This document shows, piece by piece, positions 2,313 to 31,147 of a DNA stretch of 64,000 nucleotides (its first letter is position 1; every line of letters begins with the position of its first letter). Source of the stretch: Candidatus Marinacidobacterales bacterium (GTDB lineage Bacteria > Acidobacteriota > Vicinamibacteria > Marinacidobacterales > SMYC01); contig OZ250169.1 of assembly GCA_965237955.1 (NCBI GenBank), forward strand, positions 2,368,001-2,432,000, in the 5' to 3' direction. Below the pieces are notes generated by a model. It was not told the DNA's origin. It saw only the letters and a program-made list of their open reading frames with translations, and ran no database searches. The position numbers and the translations under genes are program-made.

Positions 2313-2492
2313 ACTCAGGGCACTATCCCCAGCGCGCGTTCCATGGTTGGAAGGGCAACCTACAGATTCGGTATCAGAATCTGCTCGTAAACCCTTTGGC
2401 TCCCATGAGCTGCGGCCAGTGGTGCCAACCTGGTGCCTAGCATATTGGCGTGATCTGCGCGTGCGGGAGCCCAGGGACCCCCGCCGCGAAAT

Positions 2493-9560: not shown

Positions 9561-9770
9561 CGTCCTGTGCCAAAACTCGGCCCTTTTGAAATAGACCACA
9601 AATCAGCAGCTTAGACGCCCTTGGAATCCGCACAGAATCGAGGGTATTTCGCGCCGCAGGGCTGACTTCCGACCCATGGGCTGGCGGATGAATAAATAGA
9701 AGGCACACCAGGAGTTACAACGGCTACTTCCTGTGCGTCTCCGGTTCCGAACGGAGCTTTACCCGCACCG

Positions 9771-10133
9771 CTAGCGGGCAGTTCGCAGCAGCGCCAACGC
9801 GTAGACAATCCCGATGGCCGGAACCACCGAAAATGCCAGCGCAAGCTCCCAATCTCCTCGCACTCTTCCCGCGGCAATCATCTGCGCAACCCACAGGTCG
9901 GCGATCACGTTCGCCGTCAGGAGCGCCATCATGGCGAGGATCTTCGTCGTGGCGAGGCGGGGCCGCAGCACGAGCAGAAGTAATCCCGCGGCGCCAAGAG
10001 GGTGCAGGAGGACCACCAGCAGCCGTTGCCAGACGTCTCCACCGTTAGCGAATGCTCCAACCAGGGCCGTGAATCCTGCGAAGACCGCGTGAATCACAGC
10101 GAGAACCGTCACCGAAATCCGGAAGCTGGTCAT
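9771..10133 (-). CDS. Small hypothetical membrane protein (~4 TM)
   Basis: 120-aa hydrophobic ORF from MTSFRISV. Confidence 0.6.
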   Translation of the reverse strand: MTSFRISVTVLAVIHAVFAGFTALVGAFANGGDVWQRLLVVLLHPLGAAGLLLLVLRPRLATTKILAMMALLTANVIADLWVAQMIAAGRVRGDWELALAFSVVPAIGIVYALALLRTAR

Positions 10134-10655
10134 GGAGACATGATATATCCCTGCTGGGGAGCTACCTAATTGCCGGCCAAAACAGTCGGCGGTTTCGGAC
10201 ATGTAGGGGACGAGACGCGCGTGGTAGACGTTGCGGTTTTGACCGCGGCACACGGGCTGTGCGCCGGGGAAGAACTGCAGGAGGTCAGTGCGGAGTTGAG
10301 GCCAAATCCGAGACAAGTAAGGAAATCAAGGAGGCTCAGTCGCACCTGGACCAGAACATGCTAGGGCAGCCATGCCGCGGTAGCCTCGGCCTCGATTCTG
10401 GGCTTCTCGGGTGGCATCTTTTCCGCTGCCGCACGGCCCGGTCAACGCCCTGCACCCCTATTTGGCGCAAACTTGGCACTCGAAAATCGAGATTAGAGAC
10501 GAAAACCGAAAATGACGCCCTTTCAGCCCTTGTGCCTTCTATTTATTCATCCGCCAGCCCCATGGGTCGGAAGTCAGCCCTACGGCGCGAAATACCCTCG
10601 CTTCTGCGCGGATTCCAAGGGCGTCTAAGCTGCTGATTTGTGGTCTATTTCAAAA

Positions 10656-12039
10656 GGGTCTACGCGGGTTCGTGTGGGTTGAAAACGGCATTTCTGGGTA
10701 ATGGCGGAAGGAATGCCGCCACGATCTTCAGCTTGAGATATCCCTCGTCACGATAGCCGTAGGCGCGTCGTTGCAGAACACGGATTTTGTTGTTGACCCC
10801 TTCAACCAGTCCGAGACTGACTTTGTTCTCAGGATGACAGTAGGAGGCGATACCATCCCAATGGGACTCAATCATTCCGGCGAACTTCTGGTAGGGATGC
10901 AGGCGCTGCCATTTGAGGCTGTCTTTCCAACGTGTGAAAAAGGCGCGAGCCCCGCGTTCGGTGCGGTAATCCCAGAGTTGCCCGAAGGCCTCCTTCAAAA
11001 CATAGGCGGTGTTCAGGCGCCGGTTGGCCTGGAGCAACTTCTTGAGTGCGCGGCGACCGTCCAGGCTCAGGTTCTCCCGCCGGGAAAGCAACGTGTAACG
11101 CTGCCCCTTGATATACGACCGGTCCTCGCCGCTGAGGCGTTTGTACTCACGGCGCCGGACCTCATCGAGAGCCTTTGACAGGTGACGCATGATATGAAAC
11201 TTGTCGAAGATGATCCGCGCATTGGGTGCGTTGTTAATCACCGAGTTCCGGAAGGGCTTCCACATATCCATGGCGGCCAGCTTGATACGGGCGCTTTTCT
11301 TCCCGCCCAGCGCCTTGAAGAACAAATCGATGTCGGTTTCTTTGCGACCCTCACCGCCCACCCAGATGGGACGCGCCCGCTCCAGGTCGCTGACAATGAC
11401 ACGATAGTTATGTCCCTTGCGGATGGAGATCTCATCGATACCGATGGCCCGAGGCGCCGGCAGCCCCGCCCGCTCGACTTGCTCTTGCATGTAGAGCTTA
11501 TCCAGGTCCTTCACCGTAGTGTGGTGCAGACGTTCCATCTCGGCCACCGCCTTGTTCGGCATATCCCGGCACAGCTTGCCCACATGCGTCGCAAAGCGCT
11601 GGGTGTAGCGCGGGTTGTTCGCCAGCCAGTCCAAGTGTTCTACATGCACACCACCGCACCCACGACAGTTGACGCGCCAACGCTCGTATTCCAGATAGAT
11701 CCGCCAGCCTGCCAACGACAGGTCGCGGACCCGGCACACTTGCTTGTCATAGCGCCCCCGGCACCGATGCCCACAGTACGAGCACACGGCTGTTTTTTTC
11801 GCCTCTTGAGCTGGATGACGCGGGCGTATCGGTCACCGAATACACCGTTCAATCGGGCGCCAGCCACGAAACCTGGTAGCGCAAAAAGCGAGCGGATCGA
11901 CTGGGGATTTTTCACTCGGTTAGCCTATCCTAAAAACGGATCACTTCTCAGCACCTGATGAAGTGCTGAATACCTTTTCCACACAATGAGTTACACTATT
12001 TCTCCGTCAGCATTCGCCCACAGATTTCCGCGTAGACCC
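10656..12039 (-). mobile_element. ISL3-family insertion sequence, complete
   Basis: IRs GGGTCTACGCGG / CCGCGTAGACCC; 8-bp TSD TTTCAAAA at 10648-10655 and 12040-12047. Confidence 0.95.
10660..11915 (-). CDS. ISL3 transposase in two frames (orfA from 11915 joined near an A7 run at ~11793-11799 to the frame ending at 10660)
   Basis: CSYC zinc finger, IGIDEIS, AMDMWKPF, FDKFHI, VEGVNNKI..RRAYGYR. Confidence 0.9.
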
Positions 12040-12070
12040 TTTCAAAAGGGCCGAGTTTTGGCACAGGACG

Positions 12071-12193
12071 GGGAACCCGAATCGCCGATATCGCCTCCGA
12101 CACGCCCCAGATCTGGGGCCCGCCACAAGTCGATGACGATCGAAACGGCCCGGCGCGCCAGTCTTGAGTTCGTTTGTGTTTTTGGACACGACG
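12071..12193 (-). repeat. B-type element end (CGTCGTGTCCAAAAACACAAACGAACTC) with subterminal sequence
   Basis: Near duplicate of 12431-12553; matches the end at 19578. Confidence 0.85.
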
Positions 12194-12310
12194 GGTTCAC
12201 CTGGGCGTTCGATTTGAAGATGGAGACAGGGTAACGGAGTCGTCGAAGGTTGCTGCTGCCTGAACTTTTTGGCACACCTATTGACAAGAGCTCCTCAGAA
12301 TCGCGGCTGA

Positions 12311-12553
12311 GGTTACCGCGGCGTAGCTGGCCTAGCACGTTCTGGTCCAGGTGCGGCCCGGGTCTGGATCCAGGTCTCCGTCCGGGAGCATGGCATCCCG
12401 TTGCTGGACGGTGTTTTCCCTACGCGTGCGGGGAACCCGAATCGCCGACATCGCCTTCGACACGCCCCAGATCTGAGGCTCGCCACGGGTCGATGACGAT
12501 CAAAACGGCCCGGCGCGCCAGTCTTGAGTTCGTTTGTGTTTTTGGACAGGACG
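12311..12553 (-). repeat. B-type element end with long non-coding subterminal region
   Basis: Terminus at 12553; interior matches ~1903-2064 and ~29622-29757. Confidence 0.85.
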
Positions 12554-12664
12554 GGAACGCGGCACCGGCCCACGCTGAGGCACTACTGCGTGAGATCACA
12601 GACGAGATCAAATTCCAATTCCTCCAATCTCCGCTTGGCTTGAAACTTCGCCAAGTTCACTACA

Positions 12665-15388
12665 TCAATCAGACCCGGACCGTGCAGGGAGAACTTCCCC
12701 TTTGTATTCCCTGAAGCCTGCGATCAATTGTTTGAATGAGGCAGGCTTGTATTTCTCAAAGCTCTCCTCGTCCACGTAAGCAAAGTCGTATTCCGCGTCC
12801 GCCTGTGCTCGGTTGATGTCTTCGCACCATTGCCGTAGCCGTTTCATCTTCAGCGGAACGTCAAGATCTTCCCGGCCTTTGGTTTCCACAATGAAAATCC
12901 GCTTGGCGGACAGCTTGACCATAAAATCCGGGTAGTAGTTGGAGATGTCGCCGTCAGCTTTCACGTAATCCAGTCTGAAGCGTACTGCCAGATAGTTCTT
13001 GGCGTAGGAAACCACGTCGCTGCAATCTTCCAGGAAGCTGGCAAACAGCAGTTCAAAACGGCTGTCCCAAATGATCTTGTTAAAGACGCTCTTTTTCGGA
13101 ATAAGGTAGCCCTGATCTTTGGCTACGAAGGGCCGTGTCTGCCGCAGCTTGATGGTGTCCCGGATTTCGGCGTCGCCTTTGTCCTGCACGGTGAGCGCGT
13201 TGATCGCCTACTTGAATGTTTCGATCAGGGTTTTGGTAGCGGCTAGTTCCGACAAGTTGCGCAGGGTGTTGGGGGTCTCCAGTTCCACTGGACGGTCAAA
13301 CAACTGCTCTTGCACAAACGCTTTGACCTTCCCGTACAGTACATCGTAACCGCTGACCAGCCGCAAATCCTTCATCAGGGTCTGCGCAAAGTAGCCGATC
13401 ACACTGCGGTAATCGGCAATGCCCGCCGTGTCGAGGATAGTGGTATGCGTCACCTCGCCGGTAGTGATGTCCTTGAAGACGATCTCCCGCTGTTCTTCCT
13501 CGCTGAAATATAGGTAGGTCACACGCTGATGCCCCAGCGCGCTCACGTTCAGGTTGCTCAGGTTCTTGTATTCCCGATAGGCGCGCGGCGTAAGCACGGG
13601 GATTTCAATATCCAGCGCCTCAATGTCTTTTTTGTCGTTTTCCTTGTCAATCTCCACCACCAGCGGGGTCTTTGCCTCGGTGCCTTCGCCCATCGGCTTG
13701 CGTTCCAGAACCACGCCTTCCGCCTGAATGGATTCCACGAAATCCATGAAGGCATCCGTGCCGACCACGCTGACATATTCCTCCAGCCCGCCGGGGTACA
13801 TTTTCCGCAGGCCGCGCCCTAGAGTCTGTTCCGGCAGGATGTTGCTGGGGGCCGAATACGCTCGCAGCCCTACTATGGTGGTGACGTTCCGCACGTCCCA
13901 ACCTTCTTTCAGCACCATCACCGAGATGATTGCCTTGTAGGGGCTGTCCAGCCCGTCAATCGAGTTGGCTTGACCGCGCAGCTTATCCAGGTCTTCTTTG
14001 TTCTTGCCTGACGTTGATTCGGAAATCTCGCCGTTTCTCTTTGTGTGGATGGCCAGCACGGCGTCTTTCAGATCAGGGTAGTGGCCTTCGAGGTATTCGG
14101 CCACGTCGTCGCAGTTGCGAGTGTCATCGGTCATTACGAACAAGATGGCTTTCTTGCCCAGCTTTTCGTGCTCGGCATACGCCTTGCGCCACTCGATTAC
14201 GCCCAGGTGAATGTAATCGGCGTATTTCTCGGTGTACTTGGCGCTCTTCTGTTCCGTCAACTTGGCGCGGCTGGCGGCGTCGGGCAGCACCGGATGCTTG
14301 ACCACGTTTTGCGAGATGGCTTCCACCAGCGGGTAATCGGCGACGGTCTGCACGAAGATCGCGCCGTTGTTGTGCTTGGGCGTGGCGGTCACGTCCACTT
14401 GCAGGGAAAGGGCCGACCCTTTGTGTCTCAGGCGGTTGTGAATGTCTTCGATGGATTTGAACCATGCCATGCGCGGGTCGTGAATATGGTGGGCCTCATC
14501 GTTCAATACCACCAGTTCATCAATGTCGCGCACGATCATGCCCAAGTCCACTTTGGAATCAGTGGTCGCGCCAGTAGGCCGCTTGCCCAGGAAGTAATTC
14601 ATCGTGTCTTCATCATCCGGCGAGGCGGGCATGTCGTCCCCGGCATAGACGCGGTGGATGTTTGTCAGGAAAATGTTTCCGGCGGAGCGGGTGATGCGCA
14701 CCTCGTCCTGCCGGTGTAGGGTCAGTTGAAAATCGTCGCGCCAGTTGCGCCCGTCCACGCCGTTGTCCGGTAGCACTGGGTCCGCGAAGAAGATGCGCAG
14801 ACCGTTGAAATCCTTGTAGATGCGGTCCAGCACGATAATGTTGGGCGCGATCACCAGGAAGTTGCGGGCCAGTCCCGACTCCGGCTCATACAGCTTGTGG
14901 AAATAGCTCCAGGCCAGTACCAGGCTTAGTAGCTTGGTCTTGCCTGTGCCGGTCGCCATTTTCGCTACAAAGCGTCGCCAAGTCTCGTCAAACATGCCGC
15001 TAGAGACCGTGCCGGAACTGTCGAAGCGCATCAGGTCGTACTTGTCCTGCACGCCCACCACGTCGTACAGATAGACGATAGTCTCCAGCGCCTCGCGCTG
15101 GGCGAAGTAATACTGGAACTCGGCTAGCGTTTCCAGTGAAGCCCCGTCGGTTTGGGGGAGCAGGTGTGGCGTGTTGAACCACCAGTTGAGCAGGCTCTTG
15201 CTGGTGTCGGTCGCCCCCACATACCCGCTGTCCCGCCATTCCTTCACTTTCTTGCGCAGTTGCGGCACCAGCGGCGGCATCAGCTTTTCGGAGCTGGATT
15301 CCCGCAGGGCTTCAGCCGCCGGAAACCAACGGATAGACGGGTCGAGGATGGCATAAGGCGATTCGGGGAAGTTGGGATGGAGCGCCAT
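12665..15388 (-). pseudogene. res: Type III restriction endonuclease Res subunit with one in-frame TAG at 13208-13210
   Basis: KMATGTGKT, NDEAHH, LKEGWDV, EQTLGRGLR; frame continues past the TAG (FK*AINALTVQDKG) into the YYPDF..VETKG nuclease domain. Confidence 0.9.
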
Positions 15389-17664
15389 TATTCCCTCCCT
15401 CTCACATTGCCTTCGACGATGATCATGGTGTCATTGCCGAAGATGTCCACAACCTTGACGGCCAGCTTCCGCCCCCCCGGTGTGCAATCGTGAAAGACGC
15501 TGGTCAGTTCCAGCGAACGGTCTTTCTTGGTGCGGAAGGATTGCCATTCGTTCTCGAAGATGTAATCCCCCGTCCAGACTTCCTCATATTCCAGTAGCTC
15601 TAGCTGTTCGAGCTGCCCCATCCCAGGAATCTGAACTTGTTTCATCTTGTCATGCTGAATGCGGACGATCTCTCGCTTGCTCTCAAAGTCGAAATCCACC
15701 GCCCAGTAGTCAATCCAGTCTGTCCATTTTTTGGTGAGCCGTTCGCGTTTGACGATGCCCTTCGCGTCCTTGCTAACCTTGACGATCTGCCCCTTTTCCG
15801 CCACGATCTTGCTGCCCTTGTTCTTGAGCGTAGCCTCCACGCTGGCGATGGAGTCCTGCGAATAGAAAACCGAAAAGTCGGTCAGTTCCACCGCTACGCT
15901 GTTCTTCTTGACGTGCGGCTTGACCTCGATAGCCGCCACGTCGTGGAAGACCACTTGGTTCTTTTCCACCGCCCGCTTGTCGAACACCTCGGCGGGGATG
16001 TACTTGGGAGCGATGTCAATGCCCTTGGCGCGGGCTTCGTCCAGCACGTTAGGGAACAGCCCCATTTCAAACTCAAAGCCCAGAATGTCCACGCGGGTGA
16101 TGTGCTTCTTGCGGCATTCCAGGATCACCTCTTCCACAAACAGGCGCGTCACCGGCAGGTTGACCGGTCCCACCGCCACCAGCCGTCCGGCCTTCTTGCC
16201 GTGGAAGGTCTGGAAGCCGTCGGTCTTTTCGGCGCGGTAGGCACGCAGGATCAGGTCCACGAAAGCAGCTTCCTTTTCTTCCAGTTGCTTTTGCTGTTCC
16301 GCCTCGCGCAGGTTTGGATTCATGCCGATGTAATGCTGGCGCTCGTACTTGCCCAGGTTGAGGATTTCAAAGGCGCGGTAGTCTTTGCCTACAGCCTTCA
16401 ACTGCCGTTGCACGCCGATCATGCGCTTCCGCGTGGTGTGGATGGCGAACTTGCCCAGGTCGCTGACGATCCACTTGCGGCCCAGCTTCTCCGCCACCGC
16501 CGCTGTAGTGCCGGAGCCGCAGAAGAAGTCGGCAACCAAGTCACCTTCGTTGGAGGAGGCTTTAATGATGCGTTCGAGCAGGGCTTCGGGTTTTTGGGTG
16601 GGGTAGCCAATCAGTTCCATTTCTTTGCCCCGAATGTTGGCGACACGCTCTTGGCCGACATTGCGAATATCCATCCACAAGTCGTCAGCCAAAATCCCTT
16701 CGGTTTCATCGAGATAGAATTTGAGTCGCTTTTTCCCATTCTTCGTTATGTAAATGCGTCCTTCACTCTCCAACCTGGCGATGGATTTCTCAGAGTAATC
16801 ACCCAATGGATATGATGCCCACTTGCGACCATCTGGATCGTATTTTGTGAAGAAGTTCGCTATGTAGTCTTCACTGTACGGCACATAGACGTTATTGAAT
16901 ATATTCCCTTTTCCTTTTCGGTACGCAATGATTGCATCATGGTCCCGTGGGAACATTTTTGATTTTTTCTTGCCCCCGATTGGAGCCGACCGCTTCCACA
17001 CCAACTGATTTAGTTGATTCTCGGAGCCAAAGACTTCATCCATCATCAGGCGTATGAAACTGTTCATCCTCCAATCACAATGCACATAAATACTCCCATC
17101 CTCCGCCAGTAAATCGCGCATCAGCGCCAGCCGTTCGTAGATCATGGCGATGAAGGAATCCGCGCCCCTGCCCCAGGTGTCTCGGTAGGCGATCTCTTCC
17201 AGGATGTTGGGCTTCTTGGTGAAGGTTTCGTCCCCGATCTCGATGTCCATTGAAAAATCCGCGCCCACGTCAAAGGGCGGGTCAATGTATATCAGCTTGA
17301 GGCCGCCCTGCTTTTCGATCTCCTCGCGCAGTGGCCCGTTCTTTAGAGATGACAGGATCAGCTTGTTGTCGCCCCAGATGAGCTTGTTCGTCCAGCCCTT
17401 GAGCTGGCGGCCCCGCGCATCAGTTGCGAACAGGTCCGCTTGCAGCGCCGCCTCTTCCGGCTTCTCGGCGCGCGGCTCGTCCACCTGCTCGATCACCTGG
17501 AAAGGCAAAACGATATTGCAGACCTCGCTGGTCTTGCCGTTCCAGACCAGTTCCACCTCGCGCTTGTCCTCAAACAGCAAAAAGCGATACTTGTCCGGCA
17601 GGGGCTTATCAGCTTCGATAAAGCGGATGCTCTCTTGTTGTTCCTGCTCAGTCAGTCGGGCCAT
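15388..17664 (-). CDS. mod: Type III RM methyltransferase Mod subunit
   Basis: IYIDPPF, YPTQKPEALLERII, DFFCGSGTT; stop/start overlap with res. Confidence 0.93.
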   Translation of the reverse strand: MARLTEQEQQESIRFIEADKPLPDKYRFLLFEDKREVELVWNGKTSEVCNIVLPFQVIEQVDEPRAEKPEEAALQADLFATDARGRQLKGWTNKLIWGDNKLILSSLKNGPLREEIEKQGGLKLIYIDPPFDVGADFSMDIEIGDETFTKKPNILEEIAYRDTWGRGADSFIAMIYERLALMRDLLAEDGSIYVHCDWRMNSFIRLMMDEVFGSENQLNQLVWKRSAPIGGKKKSKMFPRDHDAIIAYRKGKGNIFNNVYVPYSEDYIANFFTKYDPDGRKWASYPLGDYSEKSIARLESEGRIYITKNGKKRLKFYLDETEGILADDLWMDIRNVGQERVANIRGKEMELIGYPTQKPEALLERIIKASSNEGDLVADFFCGSGTTAAVAEKLGRKWIVSDLGKFAIHTTRKRMIGVQRQLKAVGKDYRAFEILNLGKYERQHYIGMNPNLREAEQQKQLEEKEAAFVDLILRAYRAEKTDGFQTFHGKKAGRLVAVGPVNLPVTRLFVEEVILECRKKHITRVDILGFEFEMGLFPNVLDEARAKGIDIAPKYIPAEVFDKRAVEKNQVVFHDVAAIEVKPHVKKNSVAVELTDFSVFYSQDSIASVEATLKNKGSKIVAEKGQIVKVSKDAKGIVKRERLTKKWTDWIDYWAVDFDFESKREIVRIQHDKMKQVQIPGMGQLEQLELLEYEEVWTGDYIFENEWQSFRTKKDRSLELTSVFHDCTPGGRKLAVKVVDIFGNDTMIIVEGNVRGRE

Positions 17665-17699
17665 ACAGGGGTCTCTCCTCCATTGGTAAAAATTACACG

Positions 17700-17821
17700 T
17701 GACCTTGCCCAGGAAAAGTGGACAGGTTGATTATCTCGCATGAGCAGTTTTGAGATCATGAGTCCGTTCGAACACCATTGGGCTGTTGTAATCGAGTGAC
17801 GAGTGGAGTCGATACGGATTG
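17700..17821 (-). mobile_element. IS3-family right-end remnant
   Basis: RLHSSLDYNSP C-terminal motif followed by IR TGACCTTGCCCAGGAAAAGTGGACA. Confidence 0.7.
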
Positions 17822-17987
17822 GGTGCTTCCGCCATCAAATGTTGGTGAGATGACGCTAAGACTTTACGGTGCATTAAGTTACAGCTAAAATAGCGCTCGT
17901 GACCTTCGCTGCGCGCTAAATGGAGCGTAAGCGCCTTTTTTGCAAAAGGATGCGTACACATCACCAACAGTAAACAGCGCAAGCACC
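17822..17987. mobile_element. ~166-bp MITE-like element with GGTGCTT(C/G)CGC inverted ends (copy 1)
   Basis: Imperfect TIRs; full copy 23132-23297, partial 22479-22543, solo arm 29471-29495. Confidence 0.85.
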
Positions 17988-18047
17988 GTGGGCTTTACAA
18001 TCGCCTGGCCCGAGGGTGTTATCTTCAGATCCATGATGACGTACCAC
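17988..18047 (+). promoter_or_regulatory. Stranded copy of the rve transposase promoter/start (TGTTATCTT-7nt-ATG)
   Basis: Matches ~25249-25308 (minus strand) and ~22347-22405; extended -10-like hexamer at 18020-18025. Confidence 0.55.
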
Positions 18048-18127
18048 TCGCCGCGAAACGGCCAATCCTGGCAGGTCTAAACTGCGGAATCAACGACGGA
18101 TCGAGTTTTTGCGGAGCACCGGAGACG

Positions 18128-19549: not shown

Positions 19550-19577
19550 TCTGTTGCTGGTCTGGGTGCGTGCTCCG

Positions 19578-20809: not shown

Positions 20810-20863
20810 CGTCCTGTGCCAAAACTCGGCCCTTTTGAAATAGACCATAAATCAGCAGCTTAG
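20810..20863 (+). repeat. A-type element end
   Basis: CGTCCTGTGCCAAAACTCGGCCCTTTTGAAATAGACCATAAATCAGCAGCTTAG. Confidence 0.92.
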
Positions 20864-21336
20864 TGTTTATGGTGCGTTCCTGCGCAACCTGATCCGTCTC
20901 GCGTTTTAGCTGCTCCGGGCGGTCCTCAGCCAAGATGTCCCGGAACGTCAGGCACTGCATGGTCAGCCCAGCCTGTATCGCCGAAAGAACTGCGTGTCCC
21001 TCCTATAAATTCCGTCCGGTGCAGAAATCCTGGTCTTTCAGGGTGATGCCCGATAGCGTTGGTGGCATGCGCACGATCCTGCTTCACGGCGTTGTTTCGG
21101 CGAGCCAGTTGCGTCTGTCCGCGCCCCGCTCTCTCGTCGGCGCAAACGCTCCCCCTGGAAATCAGGATTCGAGACCAGGCGCAACGTCAACGCCGTCACA
21201 ATGCGTGCTAAGCTTTTGTAAAGCAAGAATGTCCTACGCCCTCTTTGCCATTGATGTCGTCATCCTCTTAATCGTGTTGACGGGAGCGGTCTGGTCTCAC
21301 GTCGGGTAGGATGCCTCGATTTGGGAGGTATATAGC

Positions 21337-22262
21337 ATGAAACGCTTTTTTCTCCTTGCGTTGCTGGCCCTCACCGTAAGCGCGTCAACCGCATTCGGGG
21401 ACGACGCCGTTGATTCCGTGCTCGACAACCTCGAATGGCGCAATATCGGCCCGGCGATTATGGGCGGTCGCATCAACGATTTTGCGGTCGTCGAGTCGAA
21501 CCCGAAGGTTGCCTTCGTGGCGACGGCGTCCGCTGGAATTTGGAAAACGACAAACAACGGTATCACCTGGGAGTCGCTTTTCGACGACCAACCGGTATCG
21601 AGCGTCGGCGATGTCGCGGTCGCGCCGTCCGACCCTTCGATCGTCTGGGCCGGCACCGGAGAGCCGGCGAACCGCCAAAGCTCCTCATGGGGCGACGGCG
21701 TCTACAAGTCGATGGACGGTGGTGCAACGTGGACGAACATGGGACTCGAGGACACTCACCATATCGGACGGGTGCGCATCCACCCTACGAATCCCAACAT
21801 CGTCTACGTTGCGGCGCTCGGGCATCTCTGGGGGCCGAACGAGCAACGTGGCGTCTTCAAGACGACCGACGGCGGCAAGACCTGGAAAAATACCAAATTC
21901 ATCAGCGAGAACACCGGCTTCGTCGACCTCGCGATGGATCCCGAAAGTCCGGACACGCTCTACGCCGCGGCCTACCAGAGGCGCCGACGCGCGTTCGGTT
22001 TCAACGGCGGTGGTCCCGAAAGCGGCCTGTACAAGACGACCGACGGCGCCACGACGTGGACGAAGCTCGCTAAGGGCCTCCCTGAAGGCGATACCGGCCG
22101 GATCGGCATCGATATCTATCGCAAAGACGCGCGCATCGTCTACGCGATTGTCCAGAACGCCGAGGGTGGCATCTTTCGTTCGGAAGACAAGGGCGAAACG
22201 TGGGAGAAGATGAGCGATACCAACCCGCGCCCGATGTACTACAGCCAGATTCGCATCGACCC
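21337..22262 (+). pseudogene. Secreted BNR/Asp-box (VPS10-like) beta-propeller glycosyl hydrolase-like protein, 3' truncated
   Basis: Signal peptide, WRNIGPAIMGGRI, repeated (S/T)xDGGxTW boxes; cut at IRIDP by the A-type end at 22263. Confidence 0.85.
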
Positions 22263-22580
22263 CGTCCTGTGCCAAAACTCGGCCCTCTTGAAATAGCCTA
22301 TAAATCAGCAGCTTAGCGTCTGTGTTTTGCGACGGTGCCAAGGGCTGTGGGCTTTACAATCGTCTGGCTCGAGGGTGTTATCTTCGGATCCATCATGACG
22401 TACCATGTGCAAATCCTACTGTTGGTCAGGCAGCCGTTGTTCGATCGGGCAGCCCTTGCTGCTCACACAGACCTCATGGGTGCTTCCGCCATTAAGTGTT
22501 GGTAAAATGACGCTAAGACTTCACGGTGCATTGAATTACAGCCATGGTATTTCAAAAGGGCCGAGTTTTGGCACAGGACG
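22263..22580. mobile_element. 318-bp mini-element with A-type inverted ends containing the transposase start and a partial GGTGCTTCCGC MITE
   Basis: Ends at 22263 (+) and 22580 (-); interior matches ~25236-25338 (minus strand). Confidence 0.8.
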
Positions 22581-23130
22581 CGATGGGGCCAGTGTCATTC
22601 GCGCTTGCCGGCAGAGGTGTGATGAGCTCGTTGCAGAGACCTTGGTGGTTCCGTTCTGTGTGATAGTGCACTACGTATTCGGTTACCGCTGTGCGCAGGT
22701 GTCGCTCACTGAGAGGTACGAAGCGGTCGAGACACTCTCGACGTATGGAGAGAACGAATCTTTCCGCGTATGCGTTCAGATTCGGACTATTAGCGGGAAG
22801 GCGCAGGGGCTTCACGCCTGAATCTCTCCGATGTCGAGCTCGATGTACTTATTTGCACCATACGGGCTACGACCGAATCCAAGGAGCTATGGCCAACCTC
22901 GGCCACAAGATTGCGCCGAACACGGTGAAGCGGCTCTTGAAGGAGCACGGTATCGAAGCCCCACGATAGTAATAACGAAGTAGGCTGCCGAGTCGCTCGC
23001 GGCACTCGACGCTGGGCCCATCCGCGTCCCGGGGAATATCGTCTAGCAAACGGTTGCCGAGACCCTGGTGATTCCTCTCACGCAGATAATGGAGACGATA
23101 TTCGCGGAGAGCGCGTTCCAACGCATTCCG
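22581..23130. pseudogene. Three juxtaposed rve transposase fragments from different paralogs
   Basis: 22581-22827(-) [15 protein letters not shown]; ~22860-22962(+) GYDRIQGAMANLGH; ~22967-23130(-) [20 protein letters not shown]. Confidence 0.8.
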
Positions 23131-23131
23131 G

Positions 23132-23297
23132 GGTGCTTCCGCTATTAAGTGTTGGTGAGATGACACTAAGACGTACGGTGCATTCAATTACAGCCAAAAT
23201 AGCGCCTCGTGACCTTCGCTGCGCGCTAAATGGAGCGTAAGCGCGTCTTTTGCAAAGGGATACGTACACATCACCAACAGCAAACAGCGGAAGCACC
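23132..23297. mobile_element. GGTGCTTCCGC MITE-like element (copy 2)
   Basis: GGTGCTTCCGCT..AGCGGAAGCACC ends; similar to 17822-17987. Confidence 0.85.
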
Positions 23298-23335
23298 AGT
23301 CCTCTCGCAACCGGAGCGGCTTATAATCGCAGGAC

Positions 23336-24091
23336 GTGAGCAGCAAAACCCTGTCCGATCTACTCGAAAGCGCTCACAGCGTGTTCGTCTTTACCGGGGC
23401 CGGGGTGTCCACCGGAAGCGGTATCGCGGACTTTCGCGGACCTCAGGGTGTTTGGAAACGCAGACAGCCCGTATACCTCCAGGATTTTCTCGCCTCCGAG
23501 GACGCCCGCAACGAGTATTGGGATCAAAAGCTGGAGGCCTGGCCGTCGTTTCGTTCCGCCGAGCCGAACCCTACCCACCACGCTGCCGTTGAGCTCGAAA
23601 GAGCCGACCGGCTGGCTGCCGTCGTGACGCAGAACATCGACGGTCTTCACTCTCGAGCGGGAACATCGCCGGAAATGCTCGTCGAGCTCCACGGAACGAA
23701 CCGGTGGATCGAATGTCTGAGTTGCCGGCAGCGAATTGAGCCCGACCCTCACTTCGAGCGATTTTGCAAGACGAAGAGGGCGCCGCTCTGCCACTGCGGC
23801 GGCTATCTCAAGGCCGCCACGATCAGCTTCGGCCAAAACCTCAATTCTTCTGAGCTTGAGCGCGCTGCCGAGGCCGCCAATCGGGCAGACCTCGTGGTGG
23901 CGCTCGGATCGACACTCTCCGTGTATCCAGCGGCCGGCTTTCCGCTCATGGCGGCGGAGAGGGGGGCACCCTACGTCGTCATCAACCGAGGCGAGACCGA
24001 TCACGACCATCACCCGTCCTTGACGCTGCGCCTGGAAGGTGACGTCTCCGAGATCTTTCCGCAAGCGGTGGAAGAGGCCCTGAAAGGCTAA
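23336..24091 (+). CDS. NAD-dependent protein deacylase, Sir2/CobB family
   Basis: FTGAGVSTGSGIADFRG, TQNIDGLH, ELHG, CLSC..CHC zinc site, GSTLSVYPAA. Confidence 0.93.
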   Translation: MSSKTLSDLLESAHSVFVFTGAGVSTGSGIADFRGPQGVWKRRQPVYLQDFLASEDARNEYWDQKLEAWPSFRSAEPNPTHHAAVELERADRLAAVVTQNIDGLHSRAGTSPEMLVELHGTNRWIECLSCRQRIEPDPHFERFCKTKRAPLCHCGGYLKAATISFGQNLNSSELERAAEAANRADLVVALGSTLSVYPAAGFPLMAAERGAPYVVINRGETDHDHHPSLTLRLEGDVSEIFPQAVEEALKG

Positions 24092-24327
24092 CGGTCTCTG
24101 AGGCCTGCCTGAACGGCGGAGGACAGCGTTGCCTCACCCGGAGATACCGTTAGGCTAGGAACCGGTGCTCGTTGTGCCAGCGCAAATACATGCCAGGCGT
24201 TAACCAACACGCGGATTTCAGGTTGATTCACCGTCGGCTTCATGCTGCTCGTGCCCTGACCAGATGAGCGTGGGAGATCGGATGCTATAAAAAAAGATCG
24301 TGCCGGGGCTTGACAGTTCAATACATA

Positions 24328-25263
24328 TCAGTGCACTACGTATTCGGTTACCGCTGTGCGCAGGTGTCGCTCACTGAGAGGTACGAAGCGGTCGAGACAC
24401 TCTCGACGTATGGAGAGAACGAATCTTTCCGCATATGCGTTCAGATTCGGACTATTAGCGGGAAGGCGAAGGGGCTTCACGCCTGAATCTCTCAACAGCC
24501 CACGTACCGCCTCGGTGAATAGCGGGTCCCGGTCGTGGATGAGGTATCGCTTGCCAAGGAGGAAACCATCCCACATGTCAGTGAGGTTTCTTGCCACTTG
24601 CTTCATCCACTCCCCGTTGGGGTCCGACGTTATCCCACCGATGCACACGCAGCGAGTGGCGATATCGATGACAAACAGGACATGGTAGCGGACGAGCCCG
24701 AACGGGTTCACAACCTCGACGGTGAACAGGTCTGTCGCAGCGATGGCGCCCCAATGAGCCTTGATGAAGGTGCTCCACGACATGCTCCTGCCCCGCTCCG
24801 GGGCAGGAGCGATACCGTGCTCGGCGAGGATCCTCTTGATGGTGTTGCGTCCGAGTTCATGTCCTAGGTTCTTGAGTGCGCCTCGCAGGCGCGTATATCC
24901 CCACGTCGGGTTCTCCTGCGCCACGCGCACAATGAGCTCACGGATGTCCTTCGCCGTCGGAGGTCGGCCTGGACTCCGGTTCTTGCTGCCATCGTAGTTG
25001 GCTGCGATGAGGTGGCGGTACCAGCGCAGAAGCGTAGCGGGTGTGGCAACCGACGCAATCTGGGCCAGCGCCTCGCGGCCCAAAGCCTGGGCCTTGACCG
25101 CGAGCCTGCGCCGCTCGTCGTCCGAGAGACTGAGACGCTTGCCCCGAAGCCCGGCCCGGAGCACACGGTTCTCCTCTTGCAGGTAGTCGATCACATCCTG
25201 CTGCTGGCGGTTGACCCAGCCAGCTAGAACGAGCAGTAGGAATTGCACGTGGTACGTCATCAT
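24328..25263 (-). pseudogene. rve/DDE integrase-core transposase of the A-type element, 3' truncated
   Basis: [52 protein letters not shown]; stops before ERNHQGL; left end at 25391. Confidence 0.9.
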
Positions 25264-25337
25264 GGACCTGAAGATAACACCCTCGGGCCAGACGATTGTA
25301 AAGCCTACGGCCCTTGGCCCCGGCGCAAACACAGACA

Positions 25338-25391
25338 CTAAGCTGCTGATTTATGGCCTATTTCAAAAGGGCCGAGTTTTGGCACAGGACG
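25338..25391 (-). repeat. A-type left end of the autonomous-type element
   Basis: 54-bp end, 128 bp upstream of the transposase ATG. Confidence 0.92.
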
Positions 25392-25454
25392 AGGTCGAGC
25401 GCACTAGCTCCACCGTGCGCGGCTTCTTGTATCGCTTCTTCACCTGCCACACCA

Positions 25455-25634
25455 TCAAGCTACCTCGCTGCCCTTCTTCCCAGTTCCCGTGATGAATCCC
25501 TCACATAGCCCCTCAAGGCGAGCCATCCGCTCACGGAGATCAGCAATGTCACGGCGAAGTTTCCGGTTATTGCTGAAGAGTAGACCTCCGATCGTCACGC
25601 CAACCGCTAGGATTGCGATCAATTCTGCGCTCAT
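25455..25634 (-). CDS. Small TM plus coiled-coil protein
   Basis: MSAELIAILAVGVTIGGLL..LRERMARLEGL; GGAGA upstream. Confidence 0.6.
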   Translation of the reverse strand: MSAELIAILAVGVTIGGLLFSNNRKLRRDIADLRERMARLEGLCEGFITGTGKKGSEVA

Positions 25635-25691
25635 CGGTTTCTCCACAGCCTCCCATCCTCAAGTATAAAAGAGAAGCTCCGGGAAGCAGCT

Positions 25692-26465
25692 TCAAAACCT
25701 GATCCTGATTCCTCCTCCAAACCGTAACCCGCCGGCTTTGAAACCGAGAGGCTCCCCGCCCTCGCGTTGGACCTCAATGTCAGCCTGACTGAAGCGTACC
25801 AGGAAGGACGCGCCCCACGTTTCCGTGAAATAGTACGCCAAGCCAGCACCAGCGTTGAAGCCGATGGCGGTGTTGTTCAGGGTCACGCTACTAACGCCAG
25901 TTAGAGATATCTCGTCGAACGGGTACTCCGATTTCGGGACAACCTTGTCGATCAATTCTATTTCCGTTGTGAAGACACTCGGACCGGCGAACAACTCGAC
26001 CTCTATCCTCTCGGACGCAATACGGTACGCGAAAGCGGTGTGAACCGTGAACTCTGAGTAGTCTAGTTCATCGAGCGTCTGGCTGGCCTTTAGGTGTTGG
26101 TTGAACAACAGCGGGTGCGGCTCCGAGACGTCCAGAGTCCCGTCCTGCAAGGCTGGAAGGAGTTCGAAGCTAAATCCGAACGAAAACCTCGACGCCAGCG
26201 CGTACATTCCGCCAACCTCGATAGCTGTACCGCTGCCTCCAGAGTACACTCGGCTGGTTGAACCTTGCTCAAGGAACCTCGTGAAGCTAGTGGTCTCGTC
26301 AAGGTTCGGGAGCGTCGGAAGGTAGTTCGCGTGGATGATGAACTGAGCCCGTTTCTCTTTCTTCTCTGGTTCTTCGGCTTCCTGAGCATGAAGAAGCGCC
26401 GGGAGCGCAAGCACTATCGCTAAAGCAAGGCATGTTTTTCTCACTGGACACCTACCGCATTCCAT
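25692..26465 (-). CDS. Outer-membrane beta-barrel protein
   Basis: Signal peptide, amphipathic strands, C-terminal GIRIRF; exact start uncertain. Confidence 0.75.
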   Translation of the reverse strand: MECGRCPVRKTCLALAIVLALPALLHAQEAEEPEKKEKRAQFIIHANYLPTLPNLDETTSFTRFLEQGSTSRVYSGGSGTAIEVGGMYALASRFSFGFSFELLPALQDGTLDVSEPHPLLFNQHLKASQTLDELDYSEFTVHTAFAYRIASERIEVELFAGPSVFTTEIELIDKVVPKSEYPFDEISLTGVSSVTLNNTAIGFNAGAGLAYYFTETWGASFLVRFSQADIEVQREGGEPLGFKAGGLRFGGGIRIRF

Positions 26466-27973
26466 CCGGCACGGACGGTCTGTTCTTCGACGCCGGCGCC
26501 GTAGAGTTCCCTTGCGGCGCGAATCGTGGCTTCACGAGCATCGGAGAAGTTGGAGCTCGGGACCAAGTAGTACATGAAGGCCCTGTAGAAGATCTGTTCC
26601 ATCCGGTCCATTTGCTCGAACCCGATGCCGTTGACGCTGATGCCGGACACCCGATTGGTGCCGCCCATGACCATCAAGTAGAAAGCGTGGTTCACAATGC
26701 TGGAGTTGATATGTACACCCCCACGGTCCAGGTCTCCGAGGTACCGGATTCTGTAGTGATCCGGTTTCGGGTACCTTGCGCTTAATGGGTCGGAGAAAGA
26801 CCGGATATACTCTCCAAAGTTAATAAAAGTGTCCTCGTCCATTACCCAGTCAGCTTGCAGTCTCCCGTCCCCGACAGGCTGAAAGAAGAATTCCGTGGCC
26901 ACTCCCATGATGTCGGATATCGCCTCGTTGAGCGCCCCGGACTCGTTGCGGTAGATCAGATCTGAGGAGTGATTCGTCACTCCATGAGTGATCTCGTGCG
27001 CGACAATATCAAGAGCTGCTGAGTTGAAGGTGGACTCTATGCCGTCCCCATCGCCATAGTTCATTGAGTTGTCGTATGAGTCGTAAAAGGCATTGTTGAA
27101 CCCCGCGCTTTGCGGTAAGAAGTGAACGTAGTTGGTAGCGACGAGCCCTAGGTCGTCAATGCCGTACCGGTTGTAGCGTTTGAAGTAGTAGTCGTATGTG
27201 TACCCGGAATACACATGGGCATCCACGACGGCTCCATCCGTCCACTCATTGTCGCGGTCGGTCGCTAGAAATGCGTCGGTGTCAGCCATGTAATTATTCC
27301 AAGCATAGGTCTTGATGCCGAACGGCCGGATGGTATCGACGGCTCTGAACGTGCCGACGGCCTCCTGAGAGGTCATCTTCTTCCTGTCTCCCCATGTGCC
27401 GATCCCGAGGCCAACGCCCTCATGTTGAGTATGTAGATCGTTCCACGTGAGAAGTCGCTCGCCCGAATGGGCGTCGACAAACGACACCTGGAGTGCACCT
27501 GGACTGCGTGTCCGAACGTAGTACGCGAGCGCATATCTATCGGTAAGTGGCAGGATCACCAGTTCGGTCTCGCCGCCGATGAACGCTTCCGGTCCCTCAA
27601 GTGCGAGCACACGCGCTTCCGCCTCGGCAACCGTGAGAGTTGGGGTCACGCCGACATCGACAGCCTCGTAGATGTTGCCGGTTGCCGACAGCACCAACCC
27701 GGACTGCTTCTGCCACACGAGTTGTCCGCCAAAAACCCGGACGCCTTGATGGTACTGGTTCATTCGTTCGTGGGTCCGGCCGGGGAAAGTGCCGTCCGTC
27801 TGCGAACGCTTGAACTGAAGCTGATCGGTGTCCAGCATCCGGTCGATCTCACTGGCGAGCGCTGGCACTTCCGCGGGGTCGCTAGCCCACAAGGTCCTGG
27901 ACTCACGGAACGGTTGAGCGCTCAGAACCGAATGGAAAGTAAAAAACAGAAACAAAGCGGGTAGAATACGCAC
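26441..27973 (-). CDS. M4 family (thermolysin-like) metallopeptidase, preproprotein
   Basis: Signal peptide, FTP/PepSY-like prodomain, NNAFY, HEITH, GALNEAISD, GGVHINS. Confidence 0.93.
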   Translation of the reverse strand: MRILPALFLFFTFHSVLSAQPFRESRTLWASDPAEVPALASEIDRMLDTDQLQFKRSQTDGTFPGRTHERMNQYHQGVRVFGGQLVWQKQSGLVLSATGNIYEAVDVGVTPTLTVAEAEARVLALEGPEAFIGGETELVILPLTDRYALAYYVRTRSPGALQVSFVDAHSGERLLTWNDLHTQHEGVGLGIGTWGDRKKMTSQEAVGTFRAVDTIRPFGIKTYAWNNYMADTDAFLATDRDNEWTDGAVVDAHVYSGYTYDYYFKRYNRYGIDDLGLVATNYVHFLPQSAGFNNAFYDSYDNSMNYGDGDGIESTFNSAALDIVAHEITHGVTNHSSDLIYRNESGALNEAISDIMGVATEFFFQPVGDGRLQADWVMDEDTFINFGEYIRSFSDPLSARYPKPDHYRIRYLGDLDRGGVHINSSIVNHAFYLMVMGGTNRVSGISVNGIGFEQMDRMEQIFYRAFMYYLVPSSNFSDAREATIRAARELYGAGVEEQTVRAGWNAVGVQ

Positions 27974-28070
27974 TGATCACCTCCAAAGATGCGGCGACGG
28001 TGAATTGGTCACCGGGCCAGTTCGTCACAACGAACCGCATGTGGTGGCATGCGGGATCTCGCCTATTCCC

Positions 28071-28186
28071 CGTCCTGTGCCAAAACTCGGCCCTTTTGAA
28101 ATAGACCACAAATCAGCAGCTTAGACGCCCTTGGAATCCGCGCAGAATCGAGGGTACTTCGCGCCGCAGGGCTGGTTTCCGACCCA
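28071..28186 (+). repeat. A-type element end, long form
   Basis: Matches ~9561-9676. Confidence 0.9.
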
Positions 28187-28194
28187 AAAATCCA

Positions 28195-28249
28195 GAAAGT
28201 GTGCAGTTTTCGGTTGCCACAAATGGGAAATTTACAGTTGCCGCTAACA
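28195..28249 (-). mobile_element. Solo IS21-like terminal repeat
   Basis: TGTTAGCGGCAACTGTAAATTTCCCA followed by internal repeat GGCAACCGAAAACTGCACA. Confidence 0.6.
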
Positions 28250-28500
28250 GTTTACGCCGAATATCACGTTGGACCTTGGACACTATCTGCCTCCCTTCTT
28301 GGGGCTCCAGAGTGCCCAATGAGGTCCGTAATATCTTCAATCAACGGACCGCTCTGGCCTCCGGGTCTCGCTCGCCCCACGACGGGCGACTAACTTCCCG
28401 GACAGTATCCGCCATCGTCCCTGGCCCGGCTCCCCGGAGGGTTTCGTTGTGCCCGGTATTGTGATTCGAGGCTTGCCCACCGCCAGATCACCGCGCACCC

Positions 28501-28641
28501 CGTCCTGTGCCAAAACTCGGCCCTTTTGAAATAGACCATAAAGATCGCGAAGCGTGCCCCAATCGTCGAGGGCAAGCTGGACGTGACGAAGATCGAGGCC
28601 ATCGACTTGGATAATCTGGCGCGGAAGTTTCGGACACAACG
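28501..28641. mobile_element. 141-bp mini-element: A-type end plus right-end-like ..TTTCGGACACAACG
   Basis: Left matches 9561; right resembles 20659-20673. Confidence 0.65.
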
Positions 28642-28723
28642 GATTATCTTTAAAACCGCGCGGGAACGTTTACGACCAAATGCAGGAGAGCTGGCGTCGG
28701 CAGGCAGAAAGTAGCCGCCCGCG

Positions 28724-29071
28724 TCATTCCGGAAGGCCGCGTCGTACTCGGTAGCGGCTGACACTGGGGCGCGTTCGCGAGTCCGCGCGGGCTCGGTCCA
28801 GCACCTGGCCCCAGTCCTGCTTCCGCTGCGGTCGATCGTCCACCGTGTGGTCCTCCATCCCCTGGCGGTCCGACGCCGCATCCCATGCCGCTGCCCGGGC
28901 ACGCCAAGCCCCACGATTCGCCCAGCCCTTCCAAGTGTTCAGGCTAGGTGAAAGCTCCGCAGCAGCCGCAGCCGCCGCCCGCAACGTACGGTTCGGGCCC
29001 ATACTACGATAGACGATGAACGCCGCCCACGCCTTCGCACTCTCACCATCTTGTTGATCCCACATATCCAT
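28724..29071 (-). CDS. Hypothetical protein resembling phage terminase small-subunit-like/HTH proteins
   Basis: ESAKAWAAFIVYRSMGPNRTL..W..W..RAAAWD pattern; C-terminus may be degenerate. Confidence 0.4.
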   Translation of the reverse strand: MDMWDQQDGESAKAWAAFIVYRSMGPNRTLRAAAAAAAELSPSLNTWKGWANRGAWRARAAAWDAASDRQGMEDHTVDDRPQRKQDWGQVLDRARADSRTRPSVSRYRVRRGLPE

Positions 29072-29130
29072 GTGGCGAGTATAAGCCCACGCGTCGCGAG
29101 CGAGAAGTTAACTTCAGAGTGATTGGTACG

Positions 29131-29296
29131 CTAGTCCCCTGGAACAGAGGTTCGTGGCCTAAAGCTCGACGCCATTTTGTGGGCTGGCGAGGCGTGACGA
29201 CGAAGTCATATTGGAATATTTCGAGGAGGAACAACGAAGCCAGCGCGCAAAAAGGGCACGAGATTTAGGCTACGAACCTCTGTTCCAGGGGACTAG
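29131..29296. mobile_element. 166-bp MITE bounded by CTAG
   Basis: 33-bp inverted repeat CTAGTCCCCTGGAACAGAGGTTCGT(G/A)GCCTAAA, one mismatch. Confidence 0.85.
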
Positions 29297-29495
29297 TGTC
29301 AGTTGGCCTGCCCGTGTCGGCGAACGCCATAAAGAAGGATGTCGGCGTGCACACGAAGATGTCCCTGAATGTCAGGCACCACGTGGTCAGCGCAGCCGGC
29401 ATCGCCGAAAGAACTGCGTCTCTCGAAATCAGGCTCAACCTCTAGCACGAGAACGGGTTACGCGGCGGCTACCAACACTTAATTGCGGAAGCACC

Positions 29496-29759
29496 GGTTT
29501 TCGTCTCTAATCTCGATTTTCGAGTGCCACGTTCGCGCCAAAGGGGGGAGCGGGCCGCTGACAGGGCCGTGCAGCGTCGGAAAAGAAGCCATCCGGGAGG
29601 CGGCCCAGAATCGAGCTCGGGGCTACCGCGGCGTAGCTGGCCTAGCCCGTTCTGGTCCAGGTGCGGCCCTGGCCTTATTGATATCCATCTTTCCCCAGGA
29701 CCTGGGTCCAAATCTTCGCCCGGGAGCGTGACATCCCGTTTCTGGACGTTGTTTCCCTG
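29496..29759. repeat. Non-coding subterminal repeat of B-type element
   Basis: Direct near-copy of ~1778-2038. Confidence 0.85.
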
Positions 29760-29774
29760 AGCACTTGAAGGAGG

Positions 29775-29961
29775 ACAAGGTATTGATCGAAAGGTGGCGG
29801 CAAGAGTTCAATCGCTTCAGACCCCACAGCTCGTTAGGTTACCGACCGCCAGCGCCGGAAACGATTCGGTTGAAACCGGCTCCGCTCCGCCGGCTTCAAC
29901 CAGCCATTGTCAGCACCGAATGACTGAGATACAACGTGGTGCTAACCGTGGGGTCAGGTCA
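29775..29961 (+). mobile_element. IS3-family right-end remnant
   Basis: IERWRQEFNRFRPHSSLGYRPPAPE followed by ..GTGGGGTCAGGTCA end. Confidence 0.7.
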
Positions 29962-29990
29962 CCTTTCACGGACAGGAGGACAACTCCTGA

Positions 29991-30512
29991 GTGAAACCCA
30001 GAGAATCCCTGAAAGAGAACACTTCCGGCGTGTTAAGACTCTTCGTCTACGGCACGCTCAAGCGCGGGTACTGGAACCACGACCCCTTCTGCCGAGGCGT
30101 GCTGGCGATCCAGGAGGCCCAAGTTCGGGGCCGCCTCTTCGAAGGGCCCGGCTTCCCCGTTCTTGAGGTGCCCGACGAGGACATCCTCGCTCACGGAACT
30201 GGAGACCCCCTAGCCGACATGGGCACACAGGCGCGCCTGTCCGGGCAGTGGCGTCCCCGACCGGTCTCCGAAAGCACCACAGTGGGCGCATGGGGCACCG
30301 TGTACGGGGAGCTGCTCACCTTCGACGACCCACAATCCCGCCTGTCTGCCATCGACCACCTGGAGGGCTTCCGTCCAGGCGGTTCCAGCTTGTACCGCCG
30401 TGTGCTGGTGCCCGCCACGGTCCACGGAATCCGGGAACTCGCCTGGGTCTATACGGTCGAGGCGACCCGCATCAAACGGCGCCGGATCGTATCCGGCTGC
30501 TGGCCGAAGTAA
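29991..30512 (+). CDS. Gamma-glutamylcyclotransferase (AIG2-like) family protein
   Basis: LFVYGTLKRG, VYGEL, IDHLEG, AWVY; AGGAGG RBS. Confidence 0.85.
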   Translation: MKPRESLKENTSGVLRLFVYGTLKRGYWNHDPFCRGVLAIQEAQVRGRLFEGPGFPVLEVPDEDILAHGTGDPLADMGTQARLSGQWRPRPVSESTTVGAWGTVYGELLTFDDPQSRLSAIDHLEGFRPGGSSLYRRVLVPATVHGIRELAWVYTVEATRIKRRRIVSGCWPK

Positions 30513-30537
30513 CACACTCACTTGCCGACGGCATTCC

Positions 30538-30608
30538 CGTCCTGTGCCAAAACTCGCCCCTCTTGAAATAGACCACAAATCAGCAGCTTAGACGCCCTTG
30601 GAATCCGC
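30538..30608 (+). repeat. A-type element end
   Basis: Matches ~9561-9631 with few mismatches. Confidence 0.9.
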
Positions 30609-30708
30609 CGACCCTTGGGCTGCGGGGCGAGCTACGGGCAGTGAACTTCGCACCCGGAAGTCCTTTATTAGACTGGACTTTATCGAGCACAAGAGCGAAC
30701 GTTCGGTG

Positions 30709-31146: not shown

Positions 31147-31147
31147 C

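Follow-up and report, generated by a model that had tools for sequence, protein, structure and literature searches.

The 64,000-nt window analysed here (positions 2,368,001 to 2,432,000 of the forward strand of contig OZ250169.1) belongs to the genome of a Candidatus Marinacidobacterales bacterium, metagenome-assembled as a single 8.13-Mb contig and below referred to as G000, and it carries an array of repeated sequence ends that all stop at a CG dinucleotide. The analysis revealed that two related insertion sequences (IS), IS-A and IS-B, and their miniature derivatives have these repeats as their terminal inverted repeats. There is, in our judgement, an even chance that the DDE (Asp-Asp-Glu) transposase of these elements does not insert both ends at the same site but attaches each end separately to a 7-bp target that is read in one direction only.

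All 15 ends listed by the original prediction were confirmed, and a profile built from the genome found exactly the same 15 in the window and no further ends of these types. They point to the right at 9561, 19578, 20810, 22263, 28071, 28501 and 30538 and to the left at 12070, 12193, 12553, 19803, 20673, 22580, 25391 and 28641. The proposed link to rve transposases holds as well, as one transposase starts 128 bp downstream of the end at 25391 and another stops 161 bp short of the end at 20673. Searches of the whole genome and of related genomes showed that the ends are not special to this island. The motif has 486 matches in G000 and none for a reversed-pattern control, far more than chance would give. 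A scan anchored behind the tip found 695 ends (481 A, 155 B, 52 B2 and 7 B3), or 664 when the strict tip was required. These counts are lower bounds since further CGT-tipped end types escape the A and B profiles (G000 3148880, 8078448, 392798, 483257, 844395 and 3246443). The exact A motif is found in 9 of the 30 relatives examined, 2 to 465 times in each.

Full-length elements could be rebuilt from the genome copies. IS-A is 1428 bp long with inverted repeats of ~100 bp, both of A type, and among the 21 copies examined 16 hold one open reading frame (ORF) of 355–359 aa and no two are identical (92–99.8%). IS-B, of 1348 bp, has a B end to the left and a B2 end to the right and is present in six copies, three of them intact; A and B ends are thus not partner ends of one element, as first proposed. 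The family has a third member in the same end-rich regions, IS-C, which is 1346 bp long, shows 32% identity, carries TGT tips and occurs in 16 full copies. Most often the ends are termini of autonomous copies and their fragments, but non-autonomous derivatives that move with passengers, which had been predicted, exist too, such as multi-copy units of 318 bp (15 copies), 391 bp (5), 823 bp (4) and 3.5 kb (2) and a 2843-bp composite described below. Regions with ends are 45–70% duplicated compared to 6–31% elsewhere, and 28% of the genome (~2.3 Mb) lies no more than 10 kb from an end. The transposase is encoded by a single ORF with a helix-turn-helix (HTH_32) and an rve_3 domain (Pfam), and its catalytic D-D(35)-E triad (D178, D244 and E279) is invariant in 83 sequences. 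The subterminal region of the A end (window 9597–9614 and its equivalents) resembles the IHF binding consensus and is a candidate site.

The sequence beyond the CG had been described as unrelated from end to end, which is true of its origin, but it is not random, and 613 distinct flanks share the sequence A-Y-C-S directly outside the tip. When the target was reconstructed from 199 distinct uninterrupted alleles it read A-Y-C-S|N-S-T (A 64%; C 54%, T 25%; C 85%, G 15%; C 69%, G 22% | N; G 55%, C 38%; T 60%, C 24%), the A-Y-C-S half being the one kept next to the end. This target is clearly polar, with S at -2 in 199 of the 199 empty alleles but at +1 in 105, and C at -2 in 170 compared to G at +1 in 30, and no centre of symmetry fits it. 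A one-way flank profile cannot arise when a transposase uses two identical ends together, and the simplest reading is therefore that each end is joined by itself. In none of the 199 cases was the displaced half of the target seen attached to an end, and reciprocal junctions lacking an end are not enriched (6 of 457 at a score of at least 4; 1.3% versus 1.5% in the null). For IS-C the empty alleles show S at both -2 and +2 (16 of 16). A flank dinucleotide inherited by end subtype was considered but found no support (p = 0.11 within A and 0.77 within B).

A fixed target duplication, left by concerted integration of two ends, is the textbook signature of DDE transposition. Comparison of empty and filled sites gave no fixed duplication for these elements. 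Direct repeats longer than 2 bp were absent from all 41 convergent pairs spaced 1.3–1.46 kb apart and from the 32 distant elements, among 48 loci of which 2 are duplicated, whose terminal repeats could be detected, and repeats longer than 3 bp from 22 full copies in sister genomes. In 31 of the 63 two-ended copies both flanks could be tested and none were contiguous as after a simple insertion, one pair having a 37-bp gap; the flanks of one unit were unlinked in 47 of 55 cases and the remainder is at chance level. Opposite-facing flank pairs (391 flanks with empty alleles) showed no spike at any duplication length, and in 602 flanks matching duplication halves were not in excess at 4–9 bp, while for 8-bp halves of the IS6/IS26 type 10 flanks matched against 8.0 expected.

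The spike test was also run on four control families, which gave 7 pairs at -8, 12 and 7 at -6/-7, 18 at a shared 4-bp site and 3 at -9. Among the controls, which were named from their proteins or tips, duplications are kept in 40 of 51 ISL3-like, 27 of 31 IS256-like and 18 of 39 IS21-like copies; one family that looked like IS6 by its tips proved IS903-like by its protein. In addition, IS21-like copies inside the same islands still show duplications of 6–7 bp in 8 of 18 cases.

Several other footprints were tried and rejected. Long, IS1202-like duplications are not a general feature, as only one of 56 overlapping flank pairs of 10–400 bp was a repeat of unique DNA around a convergent unit, and none was found in 141 pairs of sister loci. 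The CG is neither a 2-bp duplication nor a shared core, since among 165 empty alleles matching the last four flank bases, sequence other than the end follows the flank directly in 103. An apparent 705-bp replacement at locus L008 was dropped because it lies in an IS of ~30 copies and such links are at chance level, and an 870-bp repeat at G000 1110121 belongs to the same multicopy IS and was not counted.

What is found next to the joins is often duplicated DNA. Of the 664 ends, 203 border a copy of at least 150 bp of the uninterrupted allele, among them 49 low-copy blocks of up to 8.7 kb, six of which have sources more than 20 kb from any end. In the window the blocks with Type I restriction-modification (R-M), pyk, BNR and M4 genes are duplicated elsewhere and those with Type III R-M and sirtuin genes are single-copy. 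Three 823-bp units that are 100% identical have a common left flank and different right flanks, i.e. replacement at one end, and at G000 7871096–7874799 a chain of ends facing the same direction, each followed by a block more than 99.6% identical to DNA elsewhere, resembles an IS26 array. One clear insertion into the core genome was found at G000 2545797–2548639, where the 2843-bp B2...B composite with a Gate-domain passenger lies behind a SurA-like gene, between genes that are adjacent in 8 of 11 loci of relatives. It is flanked by an 88-bp direct repeat with 3 mismatches, a trace that would be expected if two half reactions had taken place at different sites.

According to the reading that we favour, the enzyme would nick the 3' tip of one end, and the nicked strand alone would be transferred to the target. 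Such a half-site reaction would resemble step I of the IS3 family, except that ordinary DNA is attacked. The branch would then be resolved by replication or repair, with the displaced half being lost. The result of a single event would be an adjacent deletion, a circle with captured DNA or a copy of the block on the target side. If two events took place at different sites, a unit with both its ends would be moved, accompanied by a deletion or a duplication, the length of which would vary. Most of these outcomes would be harmful in core DNA, and this would account for the piling up of ends in dispensable serine-recombinase islands.

A number of observations weigh against this. The mechanism rests on genome sequence and no intermediate was seen in assembled data. 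The 88-bp case is single and slightly aged, and its junctions score 4.1 and -0.4 against the target profile, so that one is good. Nested adjacent deletions were found in none of 10 pairs of sister ends with different flanks, and replacement with a nearby rearrangement was not above chance, with 3 deletions, 1 duplication and 4 inversions among 55 (null 2.3, 2.0 and 4.3). The empty alleles are biased towards multicopy elements. In IS-C a 3-bp match was present in 4 of 16 full copies (~1 expected by a hand estimate), none of these with contiguous flanks. Two IS903-like families of 1085–1088 bp also lack their 9-bp duplication, which none of the 80 full copies of one family and none of the 50 of the other has kept, even in core DNA, and missing duplications alone therefore do not require new chemistry.

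The last observation also favours the strongest of the alternatives, a replicative (copy-in) transposition of both ends like that of IS26 or IS903, in which the duplications have been erased by adjacent deletions and recombination. These two processes are the usual causes of missing duplications (PMC11708052), the layout of the ends is like that of IS6-family repeats (PMC7986276), and directly oriented blocks bounded by ends resemble IS26 arrays. Attack by two identical ends should however give symmetric flanks and some matching halves, and the IS903-like controls show both, with symmetric targets and matching halves in 14 of 216 flanks (1.2 expected) and 4 of 121 (0.3 expected), while the A and B ends show neither. 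We therefore regard this explanation as unlikely, though a serious one.

Less probable again is a copy-out-paste-in route of the IS3/IS481 type, in which a donor end would attack end-like sequences at a distance of one base and circles with captured DNA would re-enter beside another end in the manner of translocatable units. For A and B ends alike, the target does match best a junction of two ends head to head that are spaced by 1 nt. IS2 circles have a 1-bp spacer (PMC3299598), and chains of single-ended duplicated blocks such as that at G000 7871096–7874799 occur. One such junction, with a B end and an A end head to head around a single base, is present in a sister chromosome (locus L130, 1501–1530, genome G021). 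No further junction of this kind turned up in G000, in JGI metagenomes or in IMG/VR with the patterns used, and the list of IS-B joints from four runs, as far as it went, showed none either, these searches covering assembled contigs. In addition, the terminal base is matched less than background (12% and 24%), the targets of IS-C are unlike its tips, and step II of this route should leave fixed duplications, which are absent.

The original prediction had read the ends as a cassette-like gene-capture array. An integron-like version of this, in which the ends are recombination sites adding gene-sized passengers in order, is now largely refuted and very improbable. Several passengers are indeed intact and close to an end (pyk at 28 bp, GGCT at 25 bp), the median block between back-to-back ends is 2.2 kb and targets in long ORFs are rarer than among random island positions (50% versus 64%). 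But 99 of the 199 attacked sites still lie inside long ORFs, other passengers are not whole genes, with hsdM cut at 9561 and BNR at 22263 and uninterrupted copies of both in the genome, and the orientation of adjacent ends is near-random (177 +/-, 175 -/+, 146 +/+ and 136 -/-). The reciprocal junctions show no excess over the null, the ends are mostly IS termini and fragments, and the island itself is a serine-recombinase element (see below). Finally, chimeras collapsed on a repeat during assembly would be conceivable in a metagenome-assembled genome that is 27.5% repeated and where no metagenome contig examined bridges a junction by at least 31 bases on both sides, but they can practically be dismissed given the base-precise target motif at the junctions, the 21 non-identical IS-A copies, the same ends in 9 of 30 relatives, the same pattern on plasmids of Streptomyces and Bradyrhizobium isolates and the contigs of runs X11 and X13 that enter the end at 25391 or at 28071 by 22 bases.

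To place the transposase it was compared with family models. The best-scoring IS model was that of IS481 (NCBIfam NF033577; 102 and 92.5 bits), yet all six proteins tested fell below its cut-off of 224 (84–103 bits). The IS3 model NF033516 gave 84 and 75 bits (range 73–84), also below its cut-off of 160, and no IS6 model was found among the family-model matches, the tips being CG and not GG. The transposase is thus related to IS3 and IS481 yet outside IS481, IS3 and IS6 by the tests run. A predicted structure (pLDDT 79) gave Foldseek matches to IstA, the HIV and PFV intasomes, TnsB and Mos1, suggesting a shared fold, while a sequence search of PDB found nothing significant.

The family is large, with 7994 of 7998 scored candidates passing an E-value of 1e-20, and its members on plasmid records are named "integrase core domain-containing protein". 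Transposase matches of 94–99% identity come from Ca. Marinacidobacterales genomes, and these together with matches of the window stretch in sponge metagenomes suggest that the host is probably a sponge-associated acidobacterium. CGT tips are kept in homologues at 60–66% identity, but at 31–39% identity, in Streptomyces and Bradyrhizobium, the tips are TGT or TGC, while the layout is the same and the flanks are similar (the flank profile of the TG-type ends in Streptomyces plasmids rests on ~60 flanks). CG termini, proposed as a trait of the family, hold for this clade and are a clade variant of the tip, since distant relatives end in TGT or TGC. One Streptomyces plasmid, NZ_CP108854.1 (1.5 Mb, linear), has 29 transposase matches belonging to several subfamilies. 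A literature search found no description of the family (most subscription journals were outside its reach), nor is it described in the available parts of PMC3751702 and PMC2770080. As the original prediction held, this DDE family with its CG(T) tips is apparently uncatalogued, judged by family models and literature with ISfinder outside the comparison. More tentatively, and with rather less confidence than in single-end joining itself, we suggest that a large unnamed DDE family of thousands of proteins, with members in Acidobacteriota and Myxococcota as well as in Streptomyces and Bradyrhizobium, may have given up concerted two-end integration. With each end joined alone to a polar 7-bp motif, the element could then copy and join DNA of any kind, so that arbitrary sequences are captured, duplicated or deleted and mosaic islands of megabase size are built.

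Half-site integration, where one end is joined to one target strand, is a side reaction in retroviruses. The transposase is predicted to share the fold of retroviral integrases, with the difference that half-site joining here appears to be the dominant genomic outcome. With integrons the system has in common mixed accessory genes between repeated sites, but it differs by a DDE enzyme in place of a tyrosine recombinase, random orientation, cut genes and the lack of a fixed insertion site. It is similar to IS481 in its single ORF of ~350 aa with HTH and rve-type D-D(35)-E domains, and some relatives start with TGT. It differs by a model score far below 224 bits, by the CGT tips of this clade (CGTCC in 455 of 481 A ends, and not the TGT...ACA expected of IS481), by the polar target and by the absence of a 2–15-bp duplication, IS481 members making duplications of that size, mostly of 6 bp (PMC10045372). 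With IS3 (IS2, IS911) it shares a related catalytic domain, and the figure-of-eight step I of that family, an asymmetric transfer of a single strand by one donor end (PMC3299598), is the reaction proposed here. Unlike in IS3, there is no OrfA/OrfB frameshift (one ORF of 355–359 aa in 16 of 21 full IS-A copies), the score is below 160 bits, a 3–5-bp duplication is missing and the attacked site is ordinary DNA instead of the flank of the partner end. IS26/IS6 elements form similar mosaic regions of end-bounded blocks and have a similar repeat layout, a short tip followed by TGT and an A run (PMC7986276), and when IS26 reacts in its targeted mode only one strand transfer takes place, at one of its ends (PMC7885326). 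Here, by contrast, there is no IS6 model match, the protein has 356 aa, the repeats reach 100 bp, the 8-bp duplication is absent and no second IS copy is needed at the target. Taken from the genomic pattern, the system likely works like a one-ended strand-transfer system of the IS3/IS26 type.

When analysing the surroundings of the ends, all 15 were found to lie in an island (1651..33606) bordered by the two halves of an att-like junction with a 3-bp core. The right att half has 37 copies in the genome, 35 with an intact junction and one adjoining the tRNA-Ser gene where a 1-Mb region rich in ends begins. In relatives, the genes from the two sides of the island lie next to each other at 9 of 11 loci. 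The right border of the island carries DUF2924 and a large serine recombinase (Pfam), the latter split over two frames. Because of the att halves, the adjacency of the flanking genes in relatives and the recombinase, the island is read as an integrative element that arrived by serine recombinase, the interior of which the ends would later have reshuffled. Behind the tRNA-Ser gene (G000 126836–126921) ~20 att-like junctions of the same orientation follow over 750 kb (126919 to 873934), which suggests tandem accretion of DUF2924/serine-recombinase islands. A hot spot is located 7 bp to the right of the att crossover (equivalent to window 1657–1660), where five ends with different interiors have a common flank (G000 3010042, 3358990, 7830240, 3154602 and 3128620).

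The named passengers are all present in the window (Pfam). The island opens with a Type I R-M block (1651..9560, minus strand), a copy of G000 305140–313053 (7914 bp at 99.85%) in which hsdM is cut by the end at 9561 and of which the uninterrupted allele exists. A non-autonomous A...A unit follows (9561..12070), its right end interrupted 31 bp inside the A end by an ISL3 element with an 8-bp duplication (10656–12039; at least 15 near-identical genome copies). On the minus strand there is a B-type end of the IS-B left-end type with its tip at 12193 (12071..12193), truncated by the A end at 12070, another B-type end with its tip at 12553 (12429..12553) and the single-copy Type III R-M genes mod and res, res being split over two frames (12665..17664). 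The pyruvate kinase gene (18128..19549, plus strand) is intact, and 18022–19653 is duplicated at G000 794880–796511. Next is a 226-bp B...B mini unit (19578..19803), whose end at 19803 cuts off the 5' part of an IS-B copy; the remaining 3' part (19804..20673, plus strand, 95–96% to full copies) has the rve_3 transposase to 20512 and the B2 right end at 20673.

An A-type end (20810..20866, plus strand) is followed by a BNR/VPS10-type gene truncated at an A end (21337..22262, plus strand; uninterrupted copies elsewhere in the genome) and the 318-bp A...A miniature element (22263..22580), the flank pair of which differs in each of its 15 genome copies. The sirtuin gene (23336..24091, plus strand) is intact and single-copy. 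The IS-A copy (24330..25391, minus strand, 92–99% to full copies) has its left end at 25391 and its transposase from 25263 but lacks the 3' 45 codons and the right end. Intact genes for an outer-membrane barrel and an M4 peptidase (25692..27973, minus strand) form a block that is duplicated, together with the 28071 end, at G000 3037326–3039988; that end is an A-type end of a non-autonomous subtype (28071..28186, plus strand). A 141-bp A...B3 mini unit with four genome copies (28501..28641) and an intact GGCT-like gene (29991..30512, plus strand) come before the last segment (30538..33606, plus strand), which holds an A-type end, DUF2924, the serine recombinase (31148–32810) and the left att half. 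This segment has many genome copies at 94–98%, several of them beginning at an A end. Outside the island four tRNA genes (Pro, Arg, His, Arg) are clustered at 59175–59933.

The claim of single-end joining is directly testable, since 16 natural copies have an intact reading frame, among them the IS-A transposase at G000 448819–449889. If true, a widespread family with almost entirely one-ended, polar joins would represent a new operating mode for DDE transposition, and such a family would be overlooked or wrongly labelled by IS finders that depend on duplications and on curated family models. The same may apply to linear plasmids of Streptomyces, as in the record with 29 matches. In the organism itself the joins would scramble and duplicate the island genes and not build an ordered cassette array, and this would explain ~2.3 Mb (28%) of the genome of a probable sponge symbiont as a mosaic of duplicated defence and metabolic genes.

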